Source of the DNA: a virus
Taxonomy: Duplodnaviria > Caudoviricetes
Reading direction: 5' to 3' (one strand)
Virus record (IMG/VR): IMGVR_UViG_3300028602_002388
Location: 1,590-65,589 of that record
Length of the DNA stretch: 64,000 nt
Made by a program: the position numbers and the translations under genes. The notes below the pieces were generated by a model, which did not search any database, was not told the DNA's origin, and saw only the letters and a list, made by a program, of their open reading frames with translations. How positions within the stretch are numbered: position 1 is the first letter of the stretch; each line of letters begins with the position of its first letter. Positions 8,910-43,333 of this stretch are shown one piece after another.

Positions 8910-9431
8910 ATGATAAAGATAAAACAGGTAAGTGGCTTACAGACAGAATTGGACAAAATTCAAACTACTAAGTTTATTATTCCTGCTGCGGCCATGTTAC
9001 CTATGACTGATGCGTCTGCTTACTATCTCGAAGGATCTATTCCTACTATGGTGTTTGACCATCTGACGAACACATCAGTAAAAGCTCAACTGTGGGATTA
9101 TGAGATCCCACAAGCTGTAGCCAGAATAAAGGCAAGAGTGATTGGTAAGACAGCTGATGAGGTAACTGGAGAACAATTTGCTATGCTTGCAGTTGAAGCC
9201 CAATGGGTAGGAACAAACATTGCGTCAGTAACATTTAATCCAAGAACCGAATTTACAATAACAGGGGATGAAAAACTTGTTTATTCTAATAAAACTACGG
9301 CTTTTTCTATTGATGGCACACGCACAATAGGTTGTGGCTTATGGATAACTTTAAAACGTGTTGCTTTACATAATGTTGATGATTTGACGCAGCCATTAAT
9401 GATTGCGTGGCTTGAAATAGAGTTTTTATGA
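8910..9431 (+). CDS. Hypothetical tail-associated protein
   Basis: 173-aa ORF; N-terminus MIKIKQVSGL parallels MLKLKQIDGL of the upstream gene. Confidence 0.45.
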   Translation: MIKIKQVSGLQTELDKIQTTKFIIPAAAMLPMTDASAYYLEGSIPTMVFDHLTNTSVKAQLWDYEIPQAVARIKARVIGKTADEVTGEQFAMLAVEAQWVGTNIASVTFNPRTEFTITGDEKLVYSNKTTAFSIDGTRTIGCGLWITLKRVALHNVDDLTQPLMIAWLEIEFL

Positions 9432-10519
9432 TAAGGCGTTATAATTATAGGGTTGCTTTGGGTGAGGCGACATTTGAGTTGTTGCCTACAGGTGATGGCA
9501 CGGGTTATGCTATATTAAGAATGGAGGCAAGTGAGACGACGACACTTTCTATTCGTGGTGGGGATGCTAAGTTTTACACAGACAATAGCGGTGCTGGTGA
9601 GAGTTCCACATGGACTATTACAAGTGGTGCTATACGGTCAATATTTGTTAAGTGTACCTCAAGGTCGTTACTTGTTTTTCCAAAGCAGGGTGTTATAACA
9701 AAATGGGGGATTAGTACATCGTTAAACGGGTGGAGTTCTGAAATTAATGCTCCTTTAATTAGTAGTGTAGGCTTCCCTTTACGTAATTTAACACACCTAC
9801 ATTTATCAGGACAATGTGAGTTTTCAGGTTCGCTGCCAAGCGGGTTGACTTATCTTTATTTATTAAGCTCTAACATCAATTGGACGTTTTCAGGTTCGCT
9901 GCCAAGCGGGTTGACTTCTTTAATCCTAAATGGCTCTAACATTAATTGGACGTATTCAGGTTCGCTGCCAAGCGGGTTGACTTATCTTTATTTATTAGGC
10001 ACTAACATCAATTGGACGTATTCAGGTTCGCTGCCAAGCGGGTTGACTTCTTTAATCCTATATGGCACTAACATCAATTGGACGTATTCAGGTTCGCTGC
10101 CAAGCGGGTTGACTTCTTTAATCCTATATGGCACTAACATCAATTGGACGTATTCAGGTTCGCTGCCAAGCGGGTTGACTTCTTTAACCCTATATGGCAC
10201 TAACATCAATTGGACGGCATTTGATGCTTCAGGTTCAGGGAATATTACTACTTATTATAGATTACTTGATTTTGTAACAACTGCTTTTTCGGTTACGAAT
10301 TTCATTAGTCTATTACAGTCAATGGTAAGTAGGGTTGGCGGTTTACCTACCACTTGCTTTATTAGTAATTATGATAATAATCCTACTCCTGATGAGATTA
10401 AAAATGCAACTCCTAATCAATCCGGCACTGATGCGGAAAAGGCAAAACATTGGGTGGAGCAGTTAAGGTCTGTGAAGGGAGTTACCTCATTAATTTTAAA
10501 TAATACAAATATTAGTTAA
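9428..10519 (+). CDS. FNIP/leucine-rich-repeat-like protein, possible receptor-binding protein
   Basis: About six 22-aa repeats SGSLPSGLTSLxLxGTNINWT. Confidence 0.55.
   Translation: MIRRYNYRVALGEATFELLPTGDGTGYAILRMEASETTTLSIRGGDAKFYTDNSGAGESSTWTITSGAIRSIFVKCTSRSLLVFPKQGVITKWGISTSLNGWSSEINAPLISSVGFPLRNLTHLHLSGQCEFSGSLPSGLTYLYLLSSNINWTFSGSLPSGLTSLILNGSNINWTYSGSLPSGLTYLYLLGTNINWTYSGSLPSGLTSLILYGTNINWTYSGSLPSGLTSLILYGTNINWTYSGSLPSGLTSLTLYGTNINWTAFDASGSGNITTYYRLLDFVTTAFSVTNFISLLQSMVSRVGGLPTTCFISNYDNNPTPDEIKNATPNQSGTDAEKAKHWVEQLRSVKGVTSLILNNTNIS
9821..10216 (+). repeat. 66-bp tandem repeat (~6 units) inside the LRR-like gene
   Basis: Near-identical units ...tcaggttcgctgccaagcgggttgact... at 66-bp period. 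Confidence 0.95.
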
Positions 10520-14492: not shown

Positions 14493-14887
14493 TATTTTTT
14501 TAAATATGTTTTTATTATTTGTTTAAACCCATCAAATGAATAACAAACCTCACATTTATAATTTTGTTCTGTGAGTTTGTTCATCATTATTTTTTGGGCT
14601 ATTGTTGGTTTGTTGTTTCCAAACTTCATTTCAATAAATAGTCCGTTATGTTCTGAAGATGGCACAGAAAGAAATAGGTCTGGGACTCCTTTTTGTACTC
14701 CTTCATTTTTCAGCTTTTTTGCTGTTATTTTGTTTCGTAATCCTCCATTAGGAATTGCAAAAAGCAGTTCTTTAATATCATTATACTGAAGACGAAACCA
14801 CTTAACGCATTCCTGTTGAAGAATACTTTCATGTTGGTTAGTATTTTTTCTTTTACTATTTTTCAGTATTATTTTTTGATGGTTCAT
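14492..14887 (-). CDS. VRR-NUC domain nuclease
   Basis: ESILQQECVKWFRLQY, FAIPNGG, GVPDL and FIEMK motifs. Confidence 0.85.
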   Translation of the reverse strand: MNHQKIILKNSKRKNTNQHESILQQECVKWFRLQYNDIKELLFAIPNGGLRNKITAKKLKNEGVQKGVPDLFLSVPSSEHNGLFIEMKFGNNKPTIAQKIMMNKLTEQNYKCEVCYSFDGFKQIIKTYLKK

Positions 14888-15024
14888 TTTACTCCCCCTT
14901 CTCTTTTCCTTTTTTCCTCTTTATATAATTTATTATTTTCATTCAACTTTTTTGCTTTATAGAGCAAAAAAAGTAATGCCCCTAACAGGCTTAAATAGAT
15001 ACTGATTATTATTATCATTTTCAT
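14884..15024 (-). CDS. 46-aa membrane peptide (not in the ORF track)
   Basis: MKMIIIISIYLSLLGALLFLLYKAKKLNENNKLYKEEKRKREGGVK; its stop overlaps the VRR-NUC ATG. Confidence 0.55.
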   Translation of the reverse strand: MKMIIIISIYLSLLGALLFLLYKAKKLNENNKLYKEEKRKREGGVK

Positions 15025-16674: not shown

Positions 16675-17794
16675 TTTTCAACAAATTTTTTTGGATTAAT
16701 TCGGTTATTTGATTTTTATTAAATTTTTTTTTTAAATTGTTTCCCAATTGAGGAAGTGTACTTCCTTTGCGTACAAAGTAGCGCAAATTTCCTTCTTCCT
16801 CAAAATCTATATATTCACAATTATTGTGAAGAAATTCGATGAGAATTTCATTTTTATTTTTTTGTTTTATTTCGTTTAGTGTTGAAATAATTGATGCTAT
16901 ATAAGCATCTTTTTTACCTTTTTTCAAAAGTGTTTCAGACCCCATAATAGAGGTTTTATTTTTTCTATAGTTTTCCTTAACGAACATTTCGGCTGTTTTA
17001 TTACTACCGACTTTTGGTTCAAGCATTTGAATTTGATGCTTACATTCGTTATAATATTGTTCATCGCCGACCATTTGTGCTTTTTCCATTTGTTCTACCC
17101 ATTTTTTTGCAGGTAAAACATGGTCATACCAAAATTTATATGTTTGGTCAATGATAAGTTCACAAATCTCGTAATTTATTTCAAATGGGAATACATCTAA
17201 GTATCTCCCATTTTTCAATATTGCCAATTCTCCATAGTCAGCCTCTAACAGCAGTAAGGCTGTGTTCAATTGTGTTAAATAAGATGGGTCTATTCCGGCT
17301 TCCCATTTTGCCGCTGAGAACCCTTCTGTTGTTTTTATTTCAAGTACACCCTCTTTTTCGAGAGGCTTGCCTGTTATTAGACTAAAACCACCTTTTTTAT
17401 TTATCATCCTATCTACATTAACGAATAGCCAATCATACATTTTGTTTTTGACTATTGCATTTAATTTTTTACATCGTCTTATAATTTTTCCATTGTTTAT
17501 ATTATTAATGTAGCTTGGATTATTATATTCATCTTTTTTCCCATCCCATCCTTGCCAGCACATAGCTACATATTCTTCAAGGTTTCTACCATGGAACATT
17601 GCTTCATTATCTTTTATAGGTTTTTTAAAACCTAATTTTTGATAAAAAAGCACTAATGGGTCGGAATAGTCATCCGCATAAAGTACTGTTCGTACTTCTG
17701 ATGCGCCAATTCCGTTTAACCTGAATTGATGCCATTTCTCGCTTCGATAAGGTATTTGATATCGTTCGATATTTGTTTTTTGTTTTTTTTTCAT
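16661..17794 (-). CDS. yqaJ: YqaJ-like (lambda-exonuclease family) recombination nuclease
   Basis: WHQFRLNGIGASE, MFHGRNLEEYV, NVD and LEIKT motifs. Confidence 0.85.
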   Translation of the reverse strand: MKKKQKTNIERYQIPYRSEKWHQFRLNGIGASEVRTVLYADDYSDPLVLFYQKLGFKKPIKDNEAMFHGRNLEEYVAMCWQGWDGKKDEYNNPSYINNINNGKIIRRCKKLNAIVKNKMYDWLFVNVDRMINKKGGFSLITGKPLEKEGVLEIKTTEGFSAAKWEAGIDPSYLTQLNTALLLLEADYGELAILKNGRYLDVFPFEINYEICELIIDQTYKFWYDHVLPAKKWVEQMEKAQMVGDEQYYNECKHQIQMLEPKVGSNKTAEMFVKENYRKNKTSIMGSETLLKKGKKDAYIASIISTLNEIKQKNKNEILIEFLHNNCEYIDFEEEGNLRYFVRKGSTLPQLGNNLKKKFNKNQITELIQKNLLKNDFF

Positions 17795-17821
17795 GTTTAT
17801 TTAAATGTTTGTTTTTTGTTT

Positions 17822-17844
17822 TAACATTCGTAGATTCTATGTTA
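17822..17844 (+). other. attI-like recombination site 1 (TAACATTCGTAGATTCTATG|TTA)
   Basis: Same 23-mer family at four backbone/cassette junctions; TAACAT...ATGTTA inverted arms. Confidence 0.55.
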
Positions 17845-17853
17845 CCTGCAAGG

Positions 17854-18066
17854 CTAACATCCTGCATCACAAGTATAATTTGGCGTTTTAATTCCCAACA
17901 TAATTCTGAAAGTTCCGATAACTACTGCATAAGTAATCATATCATCTGACTTCCACTTTCTAAATCCTGTTGAATATGCTTTATGAACACCAGGAACTTT
18001 TTTGGCAGTTTTAGGAAATTTGTTAAACGCCAAATAATACTTCTTGTTTTGAAATGCTTTATACAT
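17854..18066 (-). CDS. Small cassette gene, hypothetical
   Basis: 70-aa ORF between attI-like sites 1 and 2. Confidence 0.5.
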   Translation of the reverse strand: MYKAFQNKKYYLAFNKFPKTAKKVPGVHKAYSTGFRKWKSDDMITYAVVIGTFRIMLGIKTPNYTCDAGC

Positions 18067-18118
18067 TATTTGTTTTTTGTTTTTTTTTCATGTTTATTTA
18101 AATGTTTGTTTTTTGTTT

Positions 18119-18141
18119 TAACATTCGTAGATTCTATGTTA
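18119..18141 (+). other. attI-like recombination site 2
   Basis: Identical to site 1. Confidence 0.55.
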
Positions 18142-18534
18142 CCTGCTACCGTATGGTGACACATCCTCAATCCCTGCTTCAATCATTCTACGCTTCAATG
18201 TGTTTGCAAAAAAATCATCTTGCGGGAAAAATGAATAATCACATTGCTTATATATTCGTGAAAGCCTATCAAGGACGCAGTTAAACCATTCCTTGTATTG
18301 CTCTTCCCAAGCATAATTCTGCAACTCAAAATAATTTATTGTAGTTTCATTTTTCCCAAATGGTTTATACCTCATCCCTTCAATGCGTTTTTCACGACCA
18401 ATCATAGTTTGGTAAGGTCTAACAATGTGAGACAAAATAAATTCGTGGTACTGGTCGTTACGAATAACGGCAGCAGGTAACACACGTTTGGCGTCATTTG
18501 GGCTGACGTCTAAGCCTTGAACATTAGTTTCCAT
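18139..18534 (-). CDS. Small cassette gene, hypothetical; its start lies inside an attC-like palindrome
   Basis: 131 aa; stop coincides with the GTTA of site 2. Confidence 0.6.
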   Translation of the reverse strand: METNVQGLDVSPNDAKRVLPAAVIRNDQYHEFILSHIVRPYQTMIGREKRIEGMRYKPFGKNETTINYFELQNYAWEEQYKEWFNCVLDRLSRIYKQCDYSFFPQDDFFANTLKRRMIEAGIEDVSPYGSR

Positions 18535-18605
18535 ATTTATCTTTTATTTTAAGTTGAACATTTGTTTTACAAAATCCCAAACGAATGCCAAGCGTGGGAA
18601 CGTTA
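18478..18605 (+). other. attC-like site (128 bp)
   Basis: TAAC-a-cacgtttggcgtcatttggg ... cccaaacgaatgccaagcgtg-ggaac-GTTA imperfect palindrome. Confidence 0.7.
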
Positions 18606-18838
18606 AGTAACTCCTCCGCTTTTAATTTCTTCTTCTCAATATCTTCAATTAAATAACCCCGCAGGCTTCTCTCGTCATGTGAAAAAAATCGTGCTTCATT
18701 AAGCATTTGGCGAAACAAGTTCATAAACTCAACCGTTGCCTCTGCTCGTTGTAAATCTGATAAACCAGCCGCTAACACACGGTTAGTGCAATTGCCGTTT
18801 TCGATAGTATTCGTAGTTTCTGCCAAGCGGGGTCTCAA
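18524..18838 (-). CDS. Small cassette gene; native start probably destroyed by the hairpin/CRISPR junction
   Basis: ...ETTNTIENGNCTNRVLAAG leader parallels METNV...KRVLPAA of the neighbour; half attC from 18773. Confidence 0.45.
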   Translation of the reverse strand: MRPRLAETTNTIENGNCTNRVLAAGLSDLQRAEATVEFMNLFRQMLNEARFFSHDERSLRGYLIEDIEKKKLKAEELLNVPTLGIRLGFCKTNVQLKIKDKYGN

Positions 18839-18872
18839 CTGCCGATCAGGCAGTTGAGACCCCGCTTGGCAG
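18820..18872. repeat. Perfect 24-bp inverted repeat with 5-nt loop, built from CRISPR repeat and spacer sequence
   Basis: ctgccaagcggggtctcaactgcc-gatca-ggcagttgagaccccgcttggcag. Confidence 0.95.
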
Positions 18873-19291
18873 CGAACCTGAATACGTCCAATTGCTAACT
18901 TTACATTAACTGCCTGATCGGCAATTGAGACTCATTACGTGTTAATGTATGTATCTGACCATTGCTAACTTTACATTAACTGCCTGATCGGCAATTGAGA
19001 CCTTTTTTCCTCTTTATATAATTTGTCATTGTCATTCACTAACTTTACATTAACTGCCTGATCGGCAATTGAGACTCAATCGGATAGCTCGGAAGATAGA
19101 TAGTTACTTTCGCTAACTTTACATTAACTGCCTGATCGGCAATTGAGACTAAACAAAGCTAAAGTCTCTAAAAGTCAGTTTGCTAACTTTACATTAACTG
19201 CCTGATCGGCAATTGAGACTATGTTTTTACTATTTGTTTAAACTCATCAAATGACTAACTTTACATTAACTGCCTGATTGGCAATTGAGAC
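18861..19291 (+). CRISPR. Orphan CRISPR array: 6 x 37-bp repeat CTAACTTTACATTAACTGCCTGATCGGCAATTGAGAC, 6 spacers of 33-37 bp, class 1 (type III-like)
   Basis: Repeats start at 18895, 18965, 19039, 19113, 19183 and 19255 (last has 1 mismatch). The TGCC/GGCA stem is followed by exactly 8 nt, ATTGAGAC. No cas genes in the window. Confidence 0.95.
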
Positions 19292-19308
19292 CCGACCCTA
19301 TTTCATTT

Positions 19309-19593
19309 CAAAGAACTTTTTCTCTAAAAAAAGGGAACGGGGTTTTATTTCCGTTCCCTTTACTCAACTAACATCTTAATTTAAAAACCCACATTGCAAA
19401 GGTAATAATATTATTTTTTAAAAAACAAGTTTTTAATGAATATTTTTTTAAATATTTTTTTAAACATATTGTTAATTTGTCTAAGTGTGTATGATTATCA
19501 ATAAGTTACATCATTATTTAGAATGGTTATAAAATATAAATTAAATGTTTAATAATGATTTTTTTAAGTTAAACATTCGTAAATTTTATGTTA
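19309..19593 (-). promoter_or_regulatory. Repeated promoter-terminator element, copy 1
   Basis: TACCTTTG (- strand 19397-19404) with an upstream TTG at Bacteroidota spacing; GGGAACGG/CCGTTCCC stem plus T7 about 65 nt downstream. Confidence 0.75.
19571..19593 (+). other. attI-like recombination site 3 (AAACATTCGTAAATTTTATG|TTA)
   Basis: 20/23 identical to sites 1 and 2; host-type cassette leader begins immediately after. Confidence 0.6.
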
Positions 19594-19818
19594 CCGCCAA
19601 GTGTAAAAAGACAGACGACAGCGGACAAATTGCTACTTAAAGACAGAAAAAGAAAAAACGATAAAATGAACAGCCAACGCACAAAACAGCACATTTGCAA
19701 ACCGCACAAGCTGACACACGACCGAAGTTTGCAAAAGAGCTGTTTTCTTGCCGACGCACCAGCGGATATTGATATATTTGCTGTTAATTGAAAATGAATT
19801 TTAAATAAGGACTAAATA

Positions 19819-21861
19819 ATGTTTGAACAGACTTTTAAAAACATAGATGACATTCTATACAAAGACGCAGGAGCGGACAGTGAATTGGATTATATCGAAC
19901 AAACTTCTTGGGTTTTATTTTTGCGTTATCTTGACGAATTGGAGAGAGAAAAAGCTGATGAAGAAGCTTTAAAAGGGAAAGATTACCAATTTATACTTGA
20001 CGAAGAATATCGTTGGCTAAATTGGGCAATGCCAAAAACAGCCGACGGAAAACTTGACCATCACAAAGCTATGACAGGCCCCGACCTAGTTAAGTTTGTC
20101 GATTTGAAACTATTCCCTTATTTGGCAGGATTTAAACAAAAAGCGGATAATCCCAAAACGATAGAATACAAGATTGGGGAGATTTTTAGTGAACTTAAAA
20201 ATAAAATTAAGAGTGGTTACAATCTTCGTGAGATTATCGAAATGACAGATGAACTGCCGAAAGGCAGTTCTAAAGATAAGCACGAACTTAGTCATTTATA
20301 TGAAACCAAACTTAAAAACATGGGGAATGCTGGTCGCAATGGTGGACAGTATTATACTCCTCGTCCATTAATTCGTGCTATGATTGAAGTTACACAACCT
20401 GTTATTGGAGAAAGAATATATGATGCAGCTTGTGGTAGTGCTGGTTTTTTATGTGAAGCCTATGGTTATTTGTTTAACAATATGGATAAAACCACAAATA
20501 ATCTAAAAATATTACAAGAGAACACGATGTATGGCAAAGAGAAAAAAAATCTTGCCTACATAATTGGAGTTATGAATATGATTTTGCACGGAATTGAAGC
20601 TCCAAATATTATTCATACAAATACACTTTCTGAAAATATTAGAGATATTCAGGAAAAAGACCGATTTGATGTAATACTAGCTAATCCACCTTTTGGTGGT
20701 AATGAACGTAAAGAAGTTCAACAAAATTTTGACATAAAAACAAGCGAAACAGCATCCTTGTTTTTGCAGCACTTTATTAAAAGTTTAAAAGCTGGTGGTA
20801 GAGCTGCTATTGTTATTAAGAATACATTTTTAAGTAATGCTGATAATGCTTCAATATCATTAAGAAAACATTTATTAGAGAGCTGCGATGTACATACAAT
20901 TCTTGATTTGCCTGTAGGTACATTTACGGGAGTTGGTCAAAAAACAATTGTATTGTTTTTCCAAAAAGGAATGCCGACTAAAAAAATATGGTACTATCAA
21001 TTAGAAATTGAAAGAAGTTTAGGAAAAAACAATCCTATCAACGATAACGATTTAAAAGATTTTCTTAATAAACAAAAAGGAAAGGAAGTTTCTTTAAATT
21101 CTTGGTTTGTAGATTTTGAACATATTAATAAAAAATCATACGATTTGTCGGTTAGCAATCCGAACAAGCAAATAGAAGTAATAAATATTTCTCCTAATGA
21201 ATTGATTTCTGAAATTAATAGAATAGATGCAGACTCAAAGAATCTTATTTCGGATGAAATTTTCAGAAGTACAATTGAATCACTTCTTTCTCATAATTCA
21301 AACAGTTGGGAAAAGACTACATTGTCAAAATGTTGCGATTTTTATAATGGGAAAGCACATGAAAAAGTTATAGATGATGATGGGGACTTTATTGTTGTAA
21401 ATTCTAAATTCATTTCATCTGAAGGAGAAATCTTTAAAAAGACGAGAGAACAATTATTCCCTTTGTATGTCGGTGATATTGTAATGGTGATGAGTGATGT
21501 ACCAAATGGGAAAGCACTCGCAAAGTGTTTCATTATTGATGAAGACGATTTATATACTTTAAACCAACGAATTTGTGCAATAAGAACGAATAAATTTGAT
21601 AAGCGTTTTTTATACTATCAGCTAAATAGACACAAACACTTACTTGCATTTAACAATGGAGAAAATCAAACAAATTTAAGAAAGGAAGACATATTAAATA
21701 CGCCTTTAGTTATTCCTCCAATGCAAGTACAAAAAGAAATCGTAGAAAAATTGGATAACATTTTTGATATAATTAATCAGGCAATTCAGAATCAACAGAG
21801 AATTTTAGACACTTTAGTACAAATGAAATTTAGCATTTTAAACAATACATTTACTGATTAG
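19819..21861 (+). CDS. hsdM: Type I R-M N6-adenine methyltransferase fused to a single specificity (TRD) domain
   Basis: GQYYTPRPLI, YDAACGSAGF and ILANPPF motifs; C-terminal HsdS-like WEKTTLSKCC...LVIPPMQVQKEIVEKLD. Confidence 0.9.
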   Translation: MFEQTFKNIDDILYKDAGADSELDYIEQTSWVLFLRYLDELEREKADEEALKGKDYQFILDEEYRWLNWAMPKTADGKLDHHKAMTGPDLVKFVDLKLFPYLAGFKQKADNPKTIEYKIGEIFSELKNKIKSGYNLREIIEMTDELPKGSSKDKHELSHLYETKLKNMGNAGRNGGQYYTPRPLIRAMIEVTQPVIGERIYDAACGSAGFLCEAYGYLFNNMDKTTNNLKILQENTMYGKEKKNLAYIIGVMNMILHGIEAPNIIHTNTLSENIRDIQEKDRFDVILANPPFGGNERKEVQQNFDIKTSETASLFLQHFIKSLKAGGRAAIVIKNTFLSNADNASISLRKHLLESCDVHTILDLPVGTFTGVGQKTIVLFFQKGMPTKKIWYYQLEIERSLGKNNPINDNDLKDFLNKQKGKEVSLNSWFVDFEHINKKSYDLSVSNPNKQIEVINISPNELISEINRIDADSKNLISDEIFRSTIESLLSHNSNSWEKTTLSKCCDFYNGKAHEKVIDDDGDFIVVNSKFISSEGEIFKKTREQLFPLYVGDIVMVMSDVPNGKALAKCFIIDEDDLYTLNQRICAIRTNKFDKRFLYYQLNRHKHLLAFNNGENQTNLRKEDILNTPLVIPPMQVQKEIVEKLDNIFDIINQAIQNQQRILDTLVQMKFSILNNTFTD

Positions 21862-21883
21862 CCTATTTGCAAAGCCTTATTTT

Positions 21884-22705
21884 ATGAACGAAACCGAAAC
21901 AAGAGCAGAATTAATCGACCCTGTTTTAAAAGCAGCAGGTTGGGGCGTTGTAGAAGGAAGTCGCATTCGCATGGAGTTTCCTATTAACAAAGGTCGATTA
22001 ATCGGGCATGGTCAGCGAAGCAAGCCCGACAAAGCAGATTATATATTGCAATACAAAAACAGGAATCTTGCAGTAATTGAAGCCAAGGCTAGAGATAAAT
22101 ACTATACAGAAGGAGTCGGACAAGCCAAAGATTACGCTGAAAGGTTACAAGTTCGTTTTACGTACAGTACAAACGGTTTACAAATTTATCGCATTGATAT
22201 GCAGGAAGGAATTGAAGGAGATGTAACTTCATATCCTACTCCTGATGAACTTTGGGCTTTGACCTTTGGCGACCAAGACAAATTGCAACCACTTTCAGCC
22301 GTTTGGCGTGATAAATTATTGTCCGTTCCATTCGAAGATAGAAGTGGAACATGGCAGCCACGATACTATCAAGAAAATGCAATAACTAAGGTTTTAGAAG
22401 CCATTTCAAATAATGAACCTCGTATTTTATTAACCCTTGCAACAGGAACAGGTAAAACAGCTATTGCTTTTCAAATTGCATGGAAACTGTTTCAGGCAAA
22501 ATGGAATATAAACAAAGACGGACTAAGAAGTCCAAGAATTTTGTTCTTAGCCGATAGAAATATATTAGCAGACCAAGCTTTTAATGCTTTTTCTGCATTT
22601 GAAGAAGATGCTTTGGTTCGTATCAATCCAAGCGACATAAAGAAAAAAGGGAAAGTGCCTAAAAACGGCAGTATCTTTTTTACCATTTTCCAAACATTTA
22701 ATTAA
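21884..22705 (+). pseudogene. hsdR: Type I restriction subunit, truncated after Walker A (273 aa)
   Basis: EcoEI-like N-terminus, ADY...AVIEAK, LATGTGKT; stops at TIFQTFN before the DEAD box. Confidence 0.85.
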
Positions 22706-22806
22706 TTTTCATGATTTTTCCCAACTCTTTTAAGACATTCTTTAATAATTACATTTTGCAGAAATAAGATTGTTCAATTTTTTCCGAGAGTGCAAAAAAA
22801 ATAAAA

Positions 22807-23574
22807 TCATGCTGCAAAATAGATGTTATTACATTTTCTTTCATACACTTTTTTATTAATGAGAACAAACCTATTTACGATTTCAGGATTCCCTTTCAAT
22901 AGAAACGAAAGGTCTTTTATTTCGCACAAGTATTCGTGCCTTCGTTCTATGATAAGGAGGCCTTTTTTTTCTAATTCCAGCATTCTTTGGCAGGTTGATG
23001 CTGGGGATTTATAACCTAAAATCTTCTGGAGCTTTCTTACGGAGATGGAGTATTTAGAGTTTTGGAGTAACGCTTTGCAGTATTTTGTCAGTCTCGCAGG
23101 CACTCTTCTTTTACCTTCTCTATACATCTGTTGTTGAAGACAAGGTTTGAGGTAGTACAAAATGCACAACCTCATGAGTTCCAACTTGTTTAGGCATCTA
23201 AAGGTTATTTTTTTAATACCTAAGTTAGGAGTGTATTTGGCATACAAAGTGTTTAAGGAAGTAATTCTGTAGGCTGTGTACGTTGGTTTGAGCCAACCGT
23301 TAGCCGTCATTTTATTTATTAGTCTTTGTAGTGTATCTTCTTTTATGCCTAATTCAACGGCAATAGCAGGTATTTCGGAACGTTTAAATGAACCCCCTGC
23401 ATTATCATTATTTATTTTTTTCTTAATTAGTTTACCGTTTTTTCCTTTAATAATTTTTTCTCCGGAATAAACATTTTTTCTAAATTTTATGTAGATAAAC
23501 TTATTAAATGTATCTAACAACCCCAAACTGTTTAGAGTTCCATAGAATATTACAGTTTTTTGGTTGTTAGTCAT
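22807..23574 (-). CDS. Putative DNA-binding/replication protein with HTH motifs
   Basis: SEIPAIAVELGIKEDTLQRLI and SVRKLQKILGYKSPAS HTH-like segments. Confidence 0.4.
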   Translation of the reverse strand: MTNNQKTVIFYGTLNSLGLLDTFNKFIYIKFRKNVYSGEKIIKGKNGKLIKKKINNDNAGGSFKRSEIPAIAVELGIKEDTLQRLINKMTANGWLKPTYTAYRITSLNTLYAKYTPNLGIKKITFRCLNKLELMRLCILYYLKPCLQQQMYREGKRRVPARLTKYCKALLQNSKYSISVRKLQKILGYKSPASTCQRMLELEKKGLLIIERRHEYLCEIKDLSFLLKGNPEIVNRFVLINKKVYERKCNNIYFAA

Positions 23575-23903
23575 TATTGAAGGTTCTTAATCATTTTTTT
23601 ATGCCATTCTTTATATTTTATTGGCATAACTATTTCTACGTCATTACCTGCTTCATAATAGAGGGAGGCCAGGCGTTTATCAAAGATTTGGCCATTAATA
23701 TAGCCAGGTTTGTCTTTAATAAGATAATACTTGCGCAAATGATTTCTTAACCGATAGAAAGTAAGTTGTTTAGATTCTATTGCTTCAGATAAATGTTTGA
23801 CATGTTCATGCCAAACTTCATCTTTATAAACAATATTACCTTTTCGGTCAAAAAATTGATAACCAATAAATTCAACAAAAAATTTTGCGTAGGTGCTAAA
23901 CAT
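23574..23903 (-). CDS. Hypothetical protein
   Basis: 109-aa ORF coupled to the next gene. Confidence 0.5.
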   Translation of the reverse strand: MFSTYAKFFVEFIGYQFFDRKGNIVYKDEVWHEHVKHLSEAIESKQLTFYRLRNHLRKYYLIKDKPGYINGQIFDKRLASLYYEAGNDVEIVMPIKYKEWHKKMIKNLQ

Positions 23904-24110
23904 ATGTGCTAAACATAAATTAATTCAAATGAAATTTTGTAAAAAAGGAGGAGGTATTTACCTCCTCCAATAAAACAACAAAAAAGAAACTGATTGTTAG
24001 CTTGTAATGGACAAACATGTAATTAAGGACAAACCAAATCAACAAAATTAAAAGAAAGCAGGAGGAGGCTAACAATCTTTATTTTAATTATTTTTTTAAC
24101 AATGAATAAT

Positions 24111-24406
24111 CAAAGAACTTTTTCTCTAAAAAAAAGGGAACGGGGTTTTATTTCCGTTCCCTTTACTCAACTAACATCTTAATTTAAAAACCCATGAAAA
24201 AAATCACGTTACAAAGATAATATTATTTTTAAAAAAACAAGTTTTTAATGAATATTTTTTTAAACATTTTTTTTAAACATATTGTTAATTTGTCTAAGTG
24301 TGTATGATTATCAATAAGTTACATCATTATTTAGAATGGTTATAAAATATAAATTAAATGTTTAATAATGATTTTTTTAAGTTAAACATTCGTAAATTTT
24401 ATGTTA
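24111..24406 (-). promoter_or_regulatory. Repeated promoter-terminator element, copy 2
   Basis: Nearly identical to copy 1; TATCTTTG at 24212-24219 (- strand). Confidence 0.75.
24384..24406 (+). other. attI-like recombination site 4
   Basis: Identical to site 3; followed by G|TTAGC, the start of the type III cassette. Confidence 0.6.
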
Positions 24407-24793
24407 GCTGCAAGCGTATTACGACACGACACAACAGAAAATGACCGTTAAACAGACAAGAAAAGAGTAAACCATTTTGACAGGTGACAAACAACATAAA
24501 GACCAAATTTCAACAGGACATTTGAGCCGACACTCAAACCGACCTAATGTTTTTTATTTTTTTCCCACCGCACATTTTTTAAAACCATTTTTGAAAGACA
24601 GCCAACGCACAGCAAGCACATTTGCATTTTTGCCAACCCGCAAGCCGACCCAAAAAATGCAAAAGAGCTTGCTCTTGCCTACGCACCCAAGCCCACCCAC
24701 CACCCTACCAGCGAACAAGTGGATTTCCAGAGAAAAACGGGCAGACAACGGTATTAAATTTTAACTTTGACAATTGGAAAATTGAAGTAATAA

Positions 24794-27703
24794 ATGACGA
24801 CAAAAACGGAAACAAAACAGTTTCAATATGAAATACAAAGCTATCAGGAGGACTGCGTTACAAACATTGTAAGTCTTTTTGAAAGTCTTCGCCAAAAAGT
24901 AAATTTTGGTGAGGTGCTGACAGCACACCACAAAAAGAATAAATACAATTTTCCAGTTCAAGACACTAAAAACATTGATATAATAATGGAAACGGGAACG
25001 GGAAAAACGTTCACGTTTATAAAAACCATTTTTGAACTGAGTAAGCATTTCGGATATAAAAAGTTTATCGTTCTTATTCCGACTGTTCCAATTCGTGAGG
25101 GAACAAAAACAAACTTAGAGGACACCAAAGATTACTTTAAAAGCTTTTACGCCAACGAGAAAGAAAAGGAAATTGAAACCTTTGTTTATGAAGGTGGAAA
25201 TATTTCAGCCGTTAGGCAATTTATCGGAACTTCTCATTTATCGGTTTTGGTAATGACTCCAAGCTCATTCAGCCACAAAGACAATATCTTAAACCGACCT
25301 TTAGAAAAAGACATTAACACACCTGAATTGTTCGTAAACAATCAGGAACCACCAAAATCATATTTGGAATGTTTGAAACGACTGAATCCAATTGTGATAA
25401 TGGACGAACCTCACCGTTTTGAGGGTAACGCTTTTAAAACCTACTTTGACGGTTTTGAAAATTACTTTTTGCGTTTCGGGGCAACATACCCAAAAAAGAA
25501 AGACAGTTTAGTTCTTTCTAATGTGGCTTATGTGTTGGACAGCATTTCTTCTTTCCGACAAAGTTTGGTTAAGAAAATTGTGGTTTACACGCAAGATGTT
25601 GTTGAAAACACCGACACACTCATAGGCATTGACAACAAAAAAGCCATTGTAAGCACACTGACCAACGGAATTATTGCAAGACGTGAATTAGGCGTTGGCT
25701 CGGTTTTCAATGGAAAGAGCATAAAGAAAATAAACAAGGACACGATTGTTTTAGCGGACGACACAATAGAAAAAGTTGATTATTCTTTGTCAGACGAATC
25801 ACTGCGGGCAATGATTAAAGAAACAATTAAAATTCATTTTGAAAAGGAAAAGGGATTGTTTGAGCAAGGCGTAAAAGCACTCACCTTGTTTTTTATGGAA
25901 AGCGACACCAGTTTATTTCGTGGCGACAATCCTAAAATCAAAAACATATTTGAAGAAGAATACAAAAAGCTATACAGCGAAATAGTTAGCAAACTCGACC
26001 AATCAAGCGAGTATTATAAATTCTTGCAAAACGACTTTGACAGCGATAACCATTTGCAAGTTCACAAAGGATATTTTTCAGGTGATAAAGGAAACGCAGA
26101 CGAAAAAGTAAAAGCAGGAGTTGACGAAATTCTGAAAGACAAAAAGAAACTACTTTCTTTTGAAAGTCCAACACGTTTCATTTTCTCCATTTGGGCATTA
26201 CAAGAAGGTTGGGACAACCCGAATGTATTTACCATTTGCAAACTATCCAACCAAGGAAGCGAAATATCTAAACTGCAACAAATTGGGCGAGGTTTACGCA
26301 TTTGCGTAAATCAAAACTTACAGCGTAACACGCTGAAAAATCTAAATGACGACCAGGAGGCATTTTGGAAAATCAATAATCTTGATGTTGTTGTTTCCAA
26401 TAAAGAACACGGTTTTGTTGAGGCAATTCAAAACGAAATTTTAAGCAACTCATTCCTGATTGCTGAAACCTTTACAGAGCAAGAACTCATTAAGACACTC
26501 AAAGAAAAATCGGGCTTTGATGATGACACAGTAGTTACTTTGGTGGATGATATTCTGAAAGAAAAGAAAATGATTGTTCGCAAGGCGATTGTTGACGGAC
26601 AAAAGATTTATGAAAAATCGCCTGAGTTTTCTGCAATTCTGAAAGAACAAAATCTGCCCGAAGAACAAGTGAAAGCCATTGAAAGCTTATTTGCGACTGA
26701 TACAAACACCTATGTTCAGAAAGCCGAGAAGAAAAAAGAGAAAAAGAAAGTTTTCATAAAATCAACGCACCTGCAAGAGTTTCAAAATTTGTGGAATACA
26801 ATCAACAAGAACGCCTTTTATGTTTTAGATTCTTTAAGCGAAGAACAGGAAAGCCAACTGATACAAAACATAAAAGCACAAATTGAAGCTGTAAACATTG
26901 AAGAAATTTTATTGCAAACCATTCGTGCAGAATTGAACGTAAACAAAATTGGCGAACAAGGAGCAATTACTGAAAAACTAACCGATACCGTTTCATACAA
27001 AAGCAAAGTTGATTATTTGGAATTGGTTCGCACTTTATCCAACAACACCAAAACGCCTATTTCCTTTGTGGTAAAAGTTTTCAATGCTTTGAGTAATGAT
27101 TTCAAAACCAAAATGCTTTGCAATAATCCTGAACAGGCACAAAGAGAAATTTCCGAAATAATCAACAAGAACTTAATTGCTATGCTAAAAGCAAACATTA
27201 AGTATGACGGAATTAACGGAACAGGTTTGCCAAATGTATTCAAAACTGAAAAAGGCAAAACTTATTTAGACACAGGAAGCGTTGGGAAATTCCAAAAGGA
27301 AATTGCAAACGACTTTTCTCTGAAAACTAAATGGGTATTTGAAGAAGTGATTGAATACGACAGTGATTTTGAATTGGAAATTGTGGAGCAAGACCCCGAC
27401 ATTGACAGTATTGAGATTTTCGGCAAACTTCCACGCCTTAAAATCAAAACTCCTTTAGGCGATTACAACCCTGATTTTTGCTATGCAATCAAAAGCACCG
27501 AAGGCAACAAAATATTACTTGTAGTAGAAGCCAAAGGCTATAAATCGTCAACGGCAATCCCAGTAGATGAAAAAGGGAAGATTGATTTTGCTAAAAAGTA
27601 TTTTGAAGCCTTATCAGAACACTACAAAGACCAAGACATAAAAATTTCATTTAAAGAACGTATCAATAAAACGCAATTGGCGGCATTGATAAACAACGCA
27701 TAA
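24794..27703 (+). CDS. res: Type III restriction endonuclease Res
   Basis: METGTGKT, DEPH, QEGWDNPN, QQIGRGLR and YNPDF...VEAKG; appears intact. Confidence 0.92.
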   Translation: MTTKTETKQFQYEIQSYQEDCVTNIVSLFESLRQKVNFGEVLTAHHKKNKYNFPVQDTKNIDIIMETGTGKTFTFIKTIFELSKHFGYKKFIVLIPTVPIREGTKTNLEDTKDYFKSFYANEKEKEIETFVYEGGNISAVRQFIGTSHLSVLVMTPSSFSHKDNILNRPLEKDINTPELFVNNQEPPKSYLECLKRLNPIVIMDEPHRFEGNAFKTYFDGFENYFLRFGATYPKKKDSLVLSNVAYVLDSISSFRQSLVKKIVVYTQDVVENTDTLIGIDNKKAIVSTLTNGIIARRELGVGSVFNGKSIKKINKDTIVLADDTIEKVDYSLSDESLRAMIKETIKIHFEKEKGLFEQGVKALTLFFMESDTSLFRGDNPKIKNIFEEEYKKLYSEIVSKLDQSSEYYKFLQNDFDSDNHLQVHKGYFSGDKGNADEKVKAGVDEILKDKKKLLSFESPTRFIFSIWALQEGWDNPNVFTICKLSNQGSEISKLQQIGRGLRICVNQNLQRNTLKNLNDDQEAFWKINNLDVVVSNKEHGFVEAIQNEILSNSFLIAETFTEQELIKTLKEKSGFDDDTVVTLVDDILKEKKMIVRKAIVDGQKIYEKSPEFSAILKEQNLPEEQVKAIESLFATDTNTYVQKAEKKKEKKKVFIKSTHLQEFQNLWNTINKNAFYVLDSLSEEQESQLIQNIKAQIEAVNIEEILLQTIRAELNVNKIGEQGAITEKLTDTVSYKSKVDYLELVRTLSNNTKTPISFVVKVFNALSNDFKTKMLCNNPEQAQREISEIINKNLIAMLKANIKYDGINGTGLPNVFKTEKGKTYLDTGSVGKFQKEIANDFSLKTKWVFEEVIEYDSDFELEIVEQDPDIDSIEIFGKLPRLKIKTPLGDYNPDFCYAIKSTEGNKILLVVEAKGYKSSTAIPVDEKGKIDFAKKYFEALSEHYKDQDIKISFKERINKTQLAALINNA

Positions 27704-27707
27704 GACA

Positions 27708-29615
27708 ATGGCAGAACAAGATTTTATAAAAGCAGGCTTTACTGTAGTTGGAACTGAAACCAACGAAAACAAACTTTTGAGTTTTCTGAAAGAGAACTAC
27801 CCGAATGTAATTAAAGACACCGAAATAAATATTGAAGAACTGAAAGCCGTTTTGGGTTTGCCAATTGACGAAAAAGTAAACGGCTACGGTTTAAACTTTG
27901 TGGGTAGAAACTTTGCAAGGGCAAAATATGCCCAAAAGACTGAAAAGGAATTAAGCCTCAACAGCTCGTTGAGCAAGAATATTGATACAACCGAAAATTT
28001 GGTGCTGAAAGGCGACAACCTCGACAGCTTGAAAATCCTAAAAAACCATTATAGCGGTCAAATAAAATGTATATATATCGACCCACCTTACAATACAGAG
28101 AAAGACGAGTTTGTTTATCCTGACAGATTCGACAAAGAAGAAGCGGAAGTTTTGGGATTGGCAAATTTGAGCGAAAGCGATTTTGCAAGAATGGATTTTA
28201 GTTTTAAAACCAAGAAAAGCCACAACGGTTGGTTAGCTTTTATGTATCCGCGTTTGTTATTAGCAAGAGACCTGTTAAGCAATGATGGTGCGATTTTCAT
28301 AAGCATTGATGACAATGAACAATCCAACTTGAAATTACTTTGCGATGATGTTTTTGGAGAAGAAAATTTTGTTGAAATATTTTCTTGGACGAAAACAGCA
28401 ACTCCACCAGCATTATCTCATAAGTCAAGGAAAACAAACGAATATATTTTATGCTACGAGAAAAATAAAAACAGTTATAAGTATTTTGGTGAAGAACTCG
28501 ATGGTGGTGACCAACCATTATTAAATGATGGAAACAAAGTTGGTCAATTAATTATTCCAAAAGACAAAGTTAAGTTCAATTTAGAAGATGGCGTTTACCA
28601 AGCAGGAACTTACCATAGAATCAAACTTTTAGAAACAATTGAAATAAAAGACAAAGTATCAAACAAAGATTTATCAATAGAAGGCAGATTTAAATGGCAA
28701 CAATCTTTCCTTGATGCAGAAGTAAAAAAAGGAACTACATTCATTGTAAAGTCTAAAAAGTTCTCAGTAAGGTTTCAGCGTTTTGAAGATGAAAGCTATA
28801 AAACCCCTACAAATCATATTAGAGACAAGATTATCACACCGCTTTTAGATAAAGAGAACGGAAACGTTGACACCAACGAGACAGCTTCAAGCCAGCTTGA
28901 AGAATTGTTTGGAAGCAAAGTATTTGATTTTTCTAAACCTGTTTCACTCATAAAGTATCTTATTAATTTCCTTGTAAATGATGATGATATAATACTTGAC
29001 TTCTTTGCAGGTTCAGGCACAACAGGTCACGCAGTAATGGAATTAAATAAAGACGGTGGTAACAGACGATATATTCTCTGTCAAATTGATGAACCAATTG
29101 ACCCAGCAAAGAAAAAAGAAGCGTATGACTTTTGCCTTGCTAACAACTTGGAGCCAGTTATCTCAAGCATAACTATTGAGCGGTTGAAAAGAGCAGGTGA
29201 GAAAATTGTTAAAGACGTTGAAAACGAAAATAGCAAAAACGAACTATTTGACGAAGACAAAAAACAAGTTCCCGATATTGGCTTTAAAGTATTTGACAGC
29301 GTAGAAGCACCAAAATTGAAAGTGGATGATAAAGGACAAATTTCAATTACCGAGAATGAAACAGATGCCTTGAGTCGTATTTATAATATGATTTTCACCG
29401 TTGGTTTAGACGAGCCAACACAAGTTCCTGAAGAAGTAGTGAAAGATTGCATTTACAAAATCGGAAACCATTATTACATAACCAACAGCGAGAAAATAAC
29501 CAGTGATGATTATTCAAACGCTATTAAAAACGGCAAAGTATTCATTGACGGTTGGACAGCGAGCCTAAACGGAACATTGCAGAACTATAAAGAAGATGTG
29601 AAGATTGTTTTTTAA
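27708..29615 (+). CDS. mod: Type III methyltransferase Mod
   Basis: IDPPYN, WLAFMYPRL, FISIDDNE and DFFAGSGTTGHA motifs. Confidence 0.93.
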   Translation: MAEQDFIKAGFTVVGTETNENKLLSFLKENYPNVIKDTEINIEELKAVLGLPIDEKVNGYGLNFVGRNFARAKYAQKTEKELSLNSSLSKNIDTTENLVLKGDNLDSLKILKNHYSGQIKCIYIDPPYNTEKDEFVYPDRFDKEEAEVLGLANLSESDFARMDFSFKTKKSHNGWLAFMYPRLLLARDLLSNDGAIFISIDDNEQSNLKLLCDDVFGEENFVEIFSWTKTATPPALSHKSRKTNEYILCYEKNKNSYKYFGEELDGGDQPLLNDGNKVGQLIIPKDKVKFNLEDGVYQAGTYHRIKLLETIEIKDKVSNKDLSIEGRFKWQQSFLDAEVKKGTTFIVKSKKFSVRFQRFEDESYKTPTNHIRDKIITPLLDKENGNVDTNETASSQLEELFGSKVFDFSKPVSLIKYLINFLVNDDDIILDFFAGSGTTGHAVMELNKDGGNRRYILCQIDEPIDPAKKKEAYDFCLANNLEPVISSITIERLKRAGEKIVKDVENENSKNELFDEDKKQVPDIGFKVFDSVEAPKLKVDDKGQISITENETDALSRIYNMIFTVGLDEPTQVPEEVVKDCIYKIGNHYYITNSEKITSDDYSNAIKNGKVFIDGWTASLNGTLQNYKEDVKIVF

Positions 29616-29836
29616 GCCCACGCATTTTGCAAGCACATTTGCAAACCGCACAAGCCGACACACAAGCCAAAGTTTGCAAAAGAGCTTGCAAAGCCAACGC
29701 AGACAAAAATGGTTTTAAAAAATTTTCCGACCCTTCAAAAAAAAAATAAAAAACGCAACGCACAACCCGACAGACAAATGACCGAAAACTCAACAACGAC
29801 AATGGTTTACAGACACAGTGGAGAGGAACGCCAGCA

Positions 29837-29966
29837 GCTAACAGCACATTTGCAATAGGCGGGGTTTCGTGCTCCGCAGACAGTTTAGTGGTAGCCGATA
29901 GTTTTGTGCTCCGCATAAAGTTCAGTGGTAAAAATCCCGCCCATCGCAAATCTGCAACCCGTTAGC
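29837..29966 (+). other. attC-like site (130 bp)
   Basis: GCTAAC-ag-cacatttgcaataggcgggg ... cccgcccatcgcaaatctg-caaccc-GTTAGC. Confidence 0.8.
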
Positions 29967-29973
29967 AACAAGG

Positions 29974-30297
29974 CTACGATAGTAATTCTATTAAAGCGTC
30001 TGCATGGCATGGAACTGAAAGAGAACAAAAGCATGCCAAGTCAAAACCGCGCAATTGCTCTAAATTTTCAGACATCCATTTAAATCTATCAAATTGTATG
30101 CTTGCTTCAATTTCATCAATATAATAGTAGCACATGGCATTGTTTAATATACATTCCTTGTATCGCTTTACAGATTCTTCTGCTCCTAAATCCTCCACAC
30201 GAAAAGGGTTTCCCCATTTTGTTGGTCTTCCTACGTATTTCGTGTTTTCTGGTATTCTGTAGCCTTTTGTTCTTTTTCTTTGTACTCTTTTCATCAT
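29974..30297 (-). CDS. DUF4326-family protein in a reversed cassette
   Basis: RVQRKRTKG...YVGRPTKWGNPF...DLACFC...CHADAL. Confidence 0.8.
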   Translation of the reverse strand: MMKRVQRKRTKGYRIPENTKYVGRPTKWGNPFRVEDLGAEESVKRYKECILNNAMCYYYIDEIEASIQFDRFKWMSENLEQLRGFDLACFCSLSVPCHADALIELLS

Positions 30298-30320
30298 TAT
30301 CGGTATTTACCTGCCCAGTT

Positions 30321-30411
30321 GCTAACAAAGTGTAGCCACAATAGGCGGAAAGTTAATACTAAATTGAAAAGTCAGTGTAATGCTTACTATGGTTACACTC
30401 GACCGTTGTGC
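30321..30411 (+). other. attC-like site (91 bp), followed by partial attC arms to ~30566
   Basis: GCTAAC-aa-agtgtagccacaataggc ... gcttactatggttacact-cgacc-GTTGTGC. Confidence 0.7.
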
Positions 30412-30580
30412 GTCAGTGGGGGTTTCGTGTTTCAAGTTATCTGTATTCATGTTATTAAAATTAAGTGTTTCAAATTAAGTGTAGTGCATTTAAGCTCGCA
30501 TTGACGTAAGGCTGCGAACCGTTGTGTGCTATTTTAAAGAGCGACACTACTCTACTCATTCGTTAGCTGCAATATTAAAA

Positions 30581-43109: not shown

Positions 43110-43133
43110 ATTGATATGTGAAAATGCAACTTT

Positions 43134-43333
43134 TAATCATTCTAAATAATTGTGTAATTTATTGATAATCATACGTACTTAGACAGATTAACAATATGTT
43201 TAAAAAAATATTCATTAAAAACTTGTTTTTTTAAAAATTATATTATTACTTTTGCAATGTGGGTTTTTTAATTATTTGTGTTAATGAAGGGAACGGGAAT
43301 AAAACCCCGTTCCATTTTTTTAGGGAAAAAGTT
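43134..43333 (+). promoter_or_regulatory. Repeated promoter-terminator element, copy 3 (inverted, lacks the attI-like end)
   Basis: CTTG-N21-TACTTTTG at 43247-43254, then gggaacggg...cccgttcc stem and T run. Confidence 0.7.

Follow-up and report, generated by a model that had tools for sequence, protein, structure and literature searches.

The window analyzed here is a 64,000-nt stretch (positions 1,590 to 65,589) of the IMG/VR virus record IMGVR_UViG_3300028602_002388 (Duplodnaviria; Caudoviricetes), and it harbors four copies of a 23-nt sequence, referred to below as the 23-mer, to the right of which different gene cassettes are inserted at one fixed base. The 23-mer is likely an attI-type site which resides on the phage backbone and is loaded with cassettes by an Xer-like tyrosine recombinase borrowed from the host. 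With somewhat less confidence, we favor a wider interpretation, in which phages carry recombinase-less mimics of a host insertion site, the arrays for host defense and for phage counter-defense draw on one cassette pool, and an integron-like enzyme of the Xer type moves the cassettes. The virus is a phage, probably of Bacteroidales, and the window encodes a large terminase, a tail-fibre-like protein, a DnaB helicase, a sliding clamp and a RecE/YqaJ exonuclease. The source record is a linear contig of 65,589 bp, with a CheckV completeness of ~74%.

A 23-nucleotide site repeated on the phage genome

All four copies match the pattern (T/A)AACATTCGTA(G/A)ATT(C/T)TATGTTA on the + strand with zero mismatches, starting at 17822, 18119, 19571 and 24384, where the original prediction, made from the sequence without database searches, had placed them. 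Only 0.01 matches are expected by chance, four matches were obtained in 0/100 shuffled sequences, and the complete record of 65,589 bp contains no fifth copy. With the form AACAT-N11-ATGTT, the 23-mer is an inverted repeat located at the right edge of two longer repeats. The B module, which carries sites 1 and 2, is an exact 80-nt repeat (100% identity) that includes the start of the RecE-like gene on the - strand. The A module, which carries sites 3 and 4, spans roughly 270 nt with a terminator hairpin and an AT-rich stretch, and may supply a promoter reading into the cassettes. About 230 nt of this module also occur, both times in reverse orientation, at 43131-43344 and 44250-44497, where the 23-mer and cassettes are lacking. 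Each site had been predicted to have phage backbone on its left and cassette DNA on its right starting at G↓TT (the arrow marks the crossover or break). The latter part was confirmed, but the left flanks are these two repeated modules rather than unique backbone. Small - strand open reading frames (ORFs) and a cas-less CRISPR-like array are found to the right of sites 1 and 2, a fused type I HsdM-HsdS and a truncated HsdR to the right of site 3, and a complete type III res-mod pair to the right of site 4.

Empty and filled sites and the junction survey

Alignment of relatives, which the original prediction had proposed as a check, revealed that a site may be either empty or filled and that the breakpoint falls exactly at G↓TT. 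In metagenome contigs that are 99-100% identical on the RecE side, five cassettes (N1-N5; 278-835 nt) occupy the position between G17841 and T17842 at site 1. Site 2 contains cassette Y in the window and in L070, and is empty in L045, L073, L096 and L109, in which the 23-mer is joined directly to position 18603. Sites 3 and 4 also hold other cassettes in relatives (Table 1). Furthermore, five IMG/VR fragments with a DnaB gene 100% identical to that of the window are collinear with it from the right down to 29959/29960, while the DNA left of C↓GTTAGC (~29960) is different in each of the window, L006, L008, L009 and L010. In L009 it comprises three methyltransferase genes with palindromes between them, and in L010 a type II restriction-modification (R-M) pair followed by a palindrome. 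Variable breakpoints in relatives, which the prediction had named as grounds for rejecting it, are not seen at the docking sites, where the junctions are fixed at G↓TT, but the boundary at 22688/22689 is not of this kind.

An exact scan for AACATTCGTANATTNTATGTT across IMG/VR, genome contigs and metagenome contigs identified one unrelated IMG/VR phage (L005), seven genome contigs, two of which are in a Salinivirgaceae metagenome-assembled genome (MAG), and 95 metagenome stretches. Seven matches to the degenerate pattern, in Mediterraneibacter, Acidobacteriaceae and Arcticibacterium genomes, a human-gut contig and others, were dropped as chance matches, as their flanks are unrelated and 6/7 have A, C or G at the second N (T or C in the family), so that 109 instances remain. 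The A-type left flank accounts for 55 instances, with two left variants and 41 distinct right flanks, and the B-type left flank for 20 instances, with one left variant and 14 right flanks. The other 34 instances have 19 left flanks, most with a - strand start codon 15-30 nt away, and 29 right flanks. About 80 (at least 82) distinct cassette junctions occur at the 23-mer across the surveyed contigs. The information content over the 109 instances is ~2 bits through ...TATGTT and ~0 directly after GTT, with a residual weak consensus of TT-A-K-N-N-G-C-A-A to the right of the crossover. The combination of a constant left flank, an open-ended right flank and a break at one fixed base indicates a site-specific insertion site.

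Cassette ends and palindromes

The cassettes have at their 3′ end a ~130-nt imperfect palindrome, composed of an AAC arm, asymmetric spacers, a long stem and a GTT arm. At the other end a cassette begins with TT and 6-8 nt that are reverse-complementary to the region around the AAC arm in its own far-end palindrome, as in an example cassette with start TTATCGGC, far arm GCCGATAAC and end ...CCCAACG. The corresponding sequences are TTACCTGC, GCAGCAGGTAAC and ...GGGAACG in cassette Y, and TTAGCTGC (start) and GCAGCTAAC (far arm) in the type III cassette. In 44 of 87 cassettes, all six bases located beyond GTT/AAC are complementary (6/6), and complementarity between start and far arm averages 4.26, compared with 2.40 for shuffled pairings (maximum 2.76; 200 shuffles). 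Complementarity to the own arm extends to large cassettes, namely the 5.56-kb type III cassette of the phage and a 6.1-kb type I cassette of the host. The first bases after G↓TT thus belong to the cassette's own R′, which indicates that a circular cassette was opened at G↓TT within its palindrome, as in integrons; in arrays, the R′ arm comes from the next cassette.

Three palindromes in the window had been predicted to share a polarity, with a short left and a longer right spacer, and stem-based measurement bore this out: the spacers are 1 nt (left) and 5 nt (right) at 29836-29967 and 1 and 4 nt at 30320-30411, while 18478-18609 has the same layout with an indel in the stem. The R boxes read GTTAGC, GTTACC and GTTATG and, as had been anticipated, deviate from GTTRRRY. 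Of 97 palindromes located with a stem-based finder, 83 have a left spacer that is shorter than the right one. When the finder scored A.C mismatches as matches, 79 palindromes lay on the cassette strand relative to the 23-mer and five opposite. With the version using symmetric scoring, from which the mismatch ratio was taken, the top-strand stems contain 186 A.C versus 51 G.T mismatches, and as such the bottom strand has G.T wobbles in place of this A.C excess. With DNA parameters, folding predictions gave the bottom strand the more stable structure at 14 of 15 sites.

Several cassette genes in reversed orientation begin inside the palindrome loop, with the left arm encoding the N-terminus (e.g. 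...ETPTDA... and ...TPLLHIADVS...), so that the recombination site doubles as the 5′ end of the gene. Such cases are located in L009 (reverse; 1620-1665 and 2420-2459), in L005 (10766-10806) and in the window (30409-30450).

Recombinase searches in phage and host DNA

The original prediction had noted that no tyrosine recombinase is encoded in the window. This extends to the full record, in which no tyrosine recombinase (PF00589), serine recombinase (PF00239) or Y1 transposase (PF01797) was detected, an absence that applies only to the ~74% of the genome present in it. The unrelated phage L005, a 33-kb record with the 23-mer, likewise contains no recombinase of these kinds. A family hidden Markov model (HMM) built from 120 host recombinases had no match in 364 kb of site-carrying phage-type contigs, and no relatives of the host recombinase were found among viral contigs.

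An Xer-like tyrosine recombinase gene is, however, located on a 1,069-bp contig (L113) of the Salinivirgaceae MAG (G001), which also includes two short phage-type contigs. Just beyond the start of this gene is a pair of direct repeats, ACGAATGTT, whose reverse complement is the left half of the 23-mer. They are followed by TTCGTAAATTATACG↓TTATGC, the contig ending 39 bases past the crossover. Comparison of the 23-mer with sites beside candidate host recombinases had been suggested as a check on the prediction, and it showed that the 16-nt core of the phage site, TCGTAAATTTTATGTT, is identical in 14/16 positions, with the same spacing, to the core TCGTAAATTATACGTT of L113 and L122, beside which cassettes are inserted at G↓TT. 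The promoter region of the recombinase gene contains a further element that matches the first 14 nt of the phage core. In four lineages (L113, P0006, P0001 and P0047), the repeats and core are all on the far side of the recombinase gene. Six contigs with an identical P0047 enzyme are the same through ...TGTCGTAAATAAG(A/T)CG↓TT, after which all differ, and the cassettes after this site start with a TT-R-N-N-N-(G)CAA type sequence like those of the phage. A fixed site with insertion at G↓TT, the hallmark of attI, is therefore present in the host, and in the phage also, but there without an adjacent integrase.

The host recombinase is 280 aa in length and has thousands of homologues, nearly all of ~280 aa among the matches listed, those with a name being from Bacteroidales. 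It passes the NCBIfam XerA model (NF040815; 240.8 bits versus a cut-off of 220) and fails the integron-integrase model (TIGR02249; 229.7 versus 265 bits), the match consisting of two stretches and leaving the IntI-specific region, at model positions of about 180-237, unmatched. The additional domain that distinguishes integron integrases is thus absent from the candidate, and its best solved relative is XerA (5hxy), followed by IntI4. The predicted borrowing of a host integron integrase is therefore supported in that a host tyrosine recombinase is found beside a matching site, but not in the class of enzyme, which is XerA/rAID-like and lacks the insert of a canonical IntI.

On chromosomal contigs, conserved housekeeping genes are located on one side of the recombinase gene and hypervariable, divergently transcribed genes on the other. 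The variable genes encode type I R-M, HaeIII-type R-M with an Erm-like methylase, Fic, a reverse transcriptase with a methylase, and others. The host arrays contain palindromes of the same architecture and polarity as those of the phage, one of which closes the 6.1-kb type I R-M cassette. In L113 and L120-L132 the array is upstream of and divergent from the recombinase gene, and thus does not have the downstream, co-oriented layout of the rAID-1 system of Bacteroidales. The GC skew of a 20-kb host locus is dominated by gene orientation.

In one host contig (L125:2944-3744, +), the first gene by the insertion site matches the rRNA adenine dimethylase family (PF00398) and is followed by a HaeIII-type R-M cassette. 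The PF00398 family includes Erm-type resistance methylases.

DNA common to phage and host arrays and cassette cargo

Cassettes had been predicted to come from Bacteroidota chromosomal arrays, and common DNA was found at several levels. Over 1.5 kb, the phage-type contig L097 is 82% identical to the cassette of L120 that comes first beside the recombinase, and palindromes of phage contigs and host arrays are 91-96% identical. Furthermore, the leader of the phage type I cassette is 87.5% identical to that of a chromosomal cassette in another Bacteroidales genome (L138), with the alignment beginning exactly at G19590 of the window.

To describe the cargo, 115 non-redundant ORFs of at least 100 aa located beside phage sites were compared against Pfam. 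At least 62 of the 115 encode DNA methyltransferases of several families or Mom, with matches to N6_N4_Mtase (44 ORFs), EcoRI_methylase (5), C5 DNA_methylase (4), D12 class methylase (4), N6_Mtase (3), Mom (2) and Eco57I (2), while the remaining ORFs include GmrSD, HNH and further families. Relative to the direction from site to cassette, 115 of the 140 ORFs first compiled are reversed and hence co-oriented with the leftward operon of the phage, while the large R-M cassettes are co-directional. The orphan methyltransferases probably protect the phage DNA from host restriction, and the whole R-M systems probably serve against competing phages.

A proposed mechanism and its alternatives

We propose that a 280-aa tyrosine recombinase of Bacteroidales hosts, which is Xer-like, related to that of rAID-1 and without the IntI-specific insert, would act on its own adjoining insertion site, made up of one or two ACGAATGTT repeats and the core TCGTAAAT-N4-YG↓TT. 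At this site the enzyme would stack circular cassettes, each with a ~130-nt imperfect palindrome. The phage would have copied the core of the host site (TCGTAAATTTTATG↓TT), and because it carries this core the host enzyme could insert cassettes at the phage G↓TT during infection, and probably also excise and swap them. By analogy with integrons, the recombination substrate may be the folded bottom strand of the palindrome. As the host enzyme lacks the IntI insert, such a single-strand mechanism is put forward as an analogy only.

Several observations weigh against this proposal. The link between recombinase and site is suggested by their adjacency and sequence similarity, and the host assignment depends on short contigs binned into one Salinivirgaceae MAG. 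The host enzyme is without the insert that canonical integron integrases need to read the extrahelical bases of attC. With ~74% of the genome in the record, a phage-encoded recombinase could lie in the missing part. Some boundaries also do not conform: segment X ends in a duplicated B module instead of a normal palindrome, an arrangement not accounted for by simple insertion of a cassette, the truncated end of the type I R-M cassette lies at 22688/22689, a boundary in L120 reads ACG↓AAC, and one cassette ends in C rather than G.

The phage may instead be self-sufficient, with its own recombinase encoded in the missing ~26% of its genome and the four 23-mers serving as the attI sites of that enzyme. 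The linear record and its CheckV estimate are compatible with this, but it is unlikely, given that neither the 65.6 kb of the record nor the 33 kb of L005 encodes a tyrosine, serine or Y1 enzyme, and that the family HMM finds none in the 364 kb of site-carrying contigs. Moreover, the gene of the host enzyme is directly beside its site, whereas the phage sites abut the RecE-like gene and a promoter/terminator module.

More doubtful is an Xer/dif system related to the IMEX-like elements, in which the host enzyme would be, or derive from, a chromosome-dimer resolvase with a dif-like site by its gene, as in XerS/difSL, and the 23-mer would be a dif mimic. Cassettes would then integrate like CTX-phi, by recombination of a folded hairpin with dif, and the insertion chemistry would be the same. 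The scores against the XerA and integron-integrase models and the relationship to 5hxy speak for such an origin, as do the absence of any other protein in MAG G001 that reaches the XerC or XerD cut-off and the location of the gene at 50.8% of the length of one 3.68-Mb contig. However, close homologues (at least 65% identity) are patchy in distribution. Among 81 sampled genomes of the order, 38 have a homologue, only one of which is close, and the close homologues reach 85-92% identity across different families. The other 37 genomes have only relatives with 34-51% identity, which show the rAID layout; in most of the twelve such loci that were read, the first junction is downstream of the gene and has the form ...CG↓TTA.... 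Furthermore, the site has accessory direct repeats like those of attI1 instead of being a plain 28-bp dif, and an array contains numerous cassettes that each have a palindrome of their own. A dedicated cassette recombinase is favored by the accessory repeats together with the patchy distribution at high identity.

Very improbably, the 23-mer is a regulatory palindrome, a promoter or operator that was duplicated with its flanks, with the genes shuffled by homologous recombination as in T4-type phages. In the latter, small accessory genes known as promoter-stem-loop (PeSL) cassettes are shuffled at short repeated intergenic elements in hyperplastic regions, which is thought to be due to homologous recombination between identical flanking repeats. 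The 23-mer is indeed palindromic and in many phages is found 15-30 nt upstream of the start of a - strand gene, sites 3 and 4 end a promoter/terminator-like module, and a near-identical element is present in the promoter region of the host recombinase gene. The explanation was rejected since the 23-mer flanks a cassette on one side and a palindrome is found at the other end, with only G↓TT in common. In addition, homology stops at one fixed base in about 80 junctions, the cassettes are circularly permuted, and two A-module copies without the 23-mer have no cassettes. Single-strand transposons of the IS200/IS605 type, with subterminal hairpins and insertion 3′ of ...ATGTT by a Y1 (HUH) transposase, can practically be dismissed: insertion beside a fixed short sequence without target duplication, hairpin-rich elements and a TnpB element in the same island of relatives recall such elements, but there is no Y1 transposase, the palindrome, with its AAC/GTT arms, extends across the cassette junction and a cassette start is complementary to its own far arm, unlike IS608-type ends, while the host arrays consistently adjoin a tyrosine recombinase.

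Organization of the phage island

The features of the island are listed in Table 1. The ORF of segment X is bracketed by an inverted repeat (17866-17885 and 18032-18050). The type I cassette matches Pfam N6_Mtase (1e-60), Methylase_S and ResIII/HSDR_N, and the type III cassette ResIII/RE_endonuc and N6_N4_Mtase. The half-palindrome remnant at the array end is common to the window and the unrelated phage L005.

Table 1. Docking sites, cassettes and flanking segments of the island (window coordinates).
Feature	Position	Strand	Remarks
B module and docking site 1	17770..17849	+	Has the RecE-like start codon and first 8 codons (- strand)
Docking site 1	23-mer 17822-17844; crossover G17841/T17842	+	Different cassettes inserted exactly here in five variants
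Segment X	17842..18066	-	70-aa ORF 17854-18066; found in every variant; then second B module
Second B module and docking site 2	18067..18146; 23-mer 18119-18141; crossover G18138/T18139	+	80-nt repeat
Cassette Y, 464 nt	18139..18602	+	131-aa ORF 18139-18534 (-); terminal attC-like palindrome 18478-18609
Cassette remnant, then cas-less CRISPR-like array	18603..19325	+	6 repeats 18892-19298; fold-back hairpin 18820-18872
A module and docking site 3	19326..19593; 23-mer 19571-19593; crossover G19590/T19591	+	Other cassettes in L045, L073
Type I R-M cassette	19591..22688	+	HsdM-HsdS fusion 19819-21861; truncated HsdR 21884-22705
Backbone segment common to many variants	22689..24128	-	Genes 22807-23574 (weak winged-helix match) and 23574-23903
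Second A module and docking site 4	24129..24406; 23-mer 24384-24406; crossover G24403/T24404	+	Different cassette in L067
Type III R-M cassette, 5.56 kb	24404..29961	+	res 24794-27703; mod 27708-29615; palindrome 29836-29967
Small cassette	29962..30405	+	107-aa ORF 29974-30297 (-); palindrome 30320-30411, R′ GTTGTGC
Array end	30406..30574	+	Half-palindrome remnant 30409-30447; 120-nt segment 30455-30574; backbone from 30575

The large R-M cassettes in both phage and host arrays are preceded by A/C-rich, T-poor leaders of 200-400 nt, located at 19594-19818, 24407-24793 and 29616-29836 in the window and found in the host contigs L122, L126 and L138. They have the common blocks AGCACATTTGCAA... 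and ...GTTTGCAAAAGAGCT, and may represent a cassette-borne promoter or a structured leader.

In L006, L007, L008 and L010, a 1.3-kb TnpB element stands in place of the 120-nt segment at the array end. This element is of the IS605 type with TnpB only, no TnpA being seen, and has an end hairpin of the GGGTGGGTAGTTCAC type. Remnants of its end are also found at the right end of the site-3 array, near window position 22689, in L035, L069, L074 and L086.

The CRISPR-like array has repeats of ~37 nt with a spacing of 70-74 nt and a perfect fold-back hairpin at its left end, and its spacer content varies among near-identical phage variants (the window, L045, L070, L073 and L096). Spacers match the phage's own genes at 9877-10174 (five tandem copies), 54778-54815 and 61953-61985, with further matches containing mismatches at 14505-14544 and 14908-14945. 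The first of these regions consists of five tandem 66-nt repeats within a 363-aa gene (9428-10519), each of which is targeted by array spacers.

Megablast of 12 kb against GenBank phages yielded no match, and no relatives were found among viral contigs through the RecE-like protein or an exact 34-nt pattern from its gene. A search of window positions 17-31 kb against Rfam returned only sub-threshold chance matches at terminator hairpins.

Relationship to known systems and implications

The phage and host arrays resemble integrons in the G↓TT crossover, a fixed docking site with many cassettes, AAC...GTT palindromes, circular permutation and the bias towards the bottom strand. The host site similarly consists of direct repeats and a core, and P0006-type platforms lie beside a divergently transcribed recombinase gene. 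They differ in that the host recombinase has no IntI insert, the R boxes are not GTTRRRY and pair over 9-10 bp, and most small phage cassette genes are reversed. Integrase-less attC clusters (CALINs), some with methyltransferase cassettes, have been reported in phages, including one Polaribacter phage, and phage attC sites were assayed with IntI1 (Qi et al. 2023; PMC9892861). That study describes neither a virus-borne attI-type site nor a non-IntI enzyme. DNA methyltransferase cargo is common to these phages and the one studied here, but the latter carries four attI-type sites and not only attC clusters. Very few integrons are found in Bacteroidetes by IntegronFinder 2.

The closest described system on the host side is rAID-1, arrays of which are present in more than half of 423 Bacteroidales genomes (Ross et al. 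2019, bioRxiv 10.1101/471110; also PMC12247911). It comprises a XerD-like tyrosine recombinase with intergenic repeats "reminiscent of integrons", and its arrays, located downstream of and co-oriented with the recombinase, contain immunity genes against type VI toxins (Ross et al. 2019). Membership is defined by an enzyme with at least 44% identity to the recombinase of B. fragilis 9343 and by two or more low-GC genes that lie downstream in the same orientation. The biogenesis mechanism of these arrays was described in a 2025 preprint as an area of active research, and phages are mentioned neither there nor by Ross et al. (2019). The ~280-aa XerD-like recombinase, the AT-rich cassette arrays and the conserved intergenic repeats are common to rAID-1 and the system described here. 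Furthermore, P0006 homologues at 41-51% identity have the rAID layout with a first junction of ...CG↓TTA..., and it is one such cassette whose leader resembles that of the phage. By contrast, in the platform whose site is most like that of the phage, the array diverges from its recombinase and contains R-M along with other anti-phage genes, and neither an attI/attC mechanism nor a link to phages has been described for rAID-1. The host system is thus a rAID-1 relative with a divergent layout and anti-phage cargo. A literature search, in which subscription journals were partly covered, retrieved no paper on the sites of the host system or on its viral branch.

Elements without a recombinase of their own that are acted on by an Xer-family enzyme of the host, as is proposed here, include CTX-phi-type IMEX at dif and the pdif modules of Acinetobacter plasmids. 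In the case of CTX-phi, the substrate is a folded single-stranded hairpin, and elements stack at one site. Here, however, the docking site is on the phage and the hairpin on the cassettes, and there are accessory repeats and many unrelated cassettes. The phage cassettes also differ from PeSL cassettes, as their two ends are different and the junction is fixed to one base.

What is new is a recombinase-less docking site on a virus and the population-scale turnover of cassettes there. If the proposed reading is correct, a docking site of the attI type would be seen on a virus for the first time, and the integron principle would occur in a second recombinase lineage, in which an Xer-like enzyme does the work of an integron integrase despite lacking the domain considered essential to it. 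For the question, standing since 2019, of how the widespread rAID-type arrays of Bacteroidales from gut and digesters acquire genes, the present finding would define DNA sites, namely the 16-nt core and the palindrome, as well as a candidate enzyme. Because current integron detection depends on the IntI insert and on a proteobacterial attC model, a large cassette system would escape it together with its viral branch. The proposed mechanism would also explain how the anti-restriction repertoire changes within one phage population without homologous donors.

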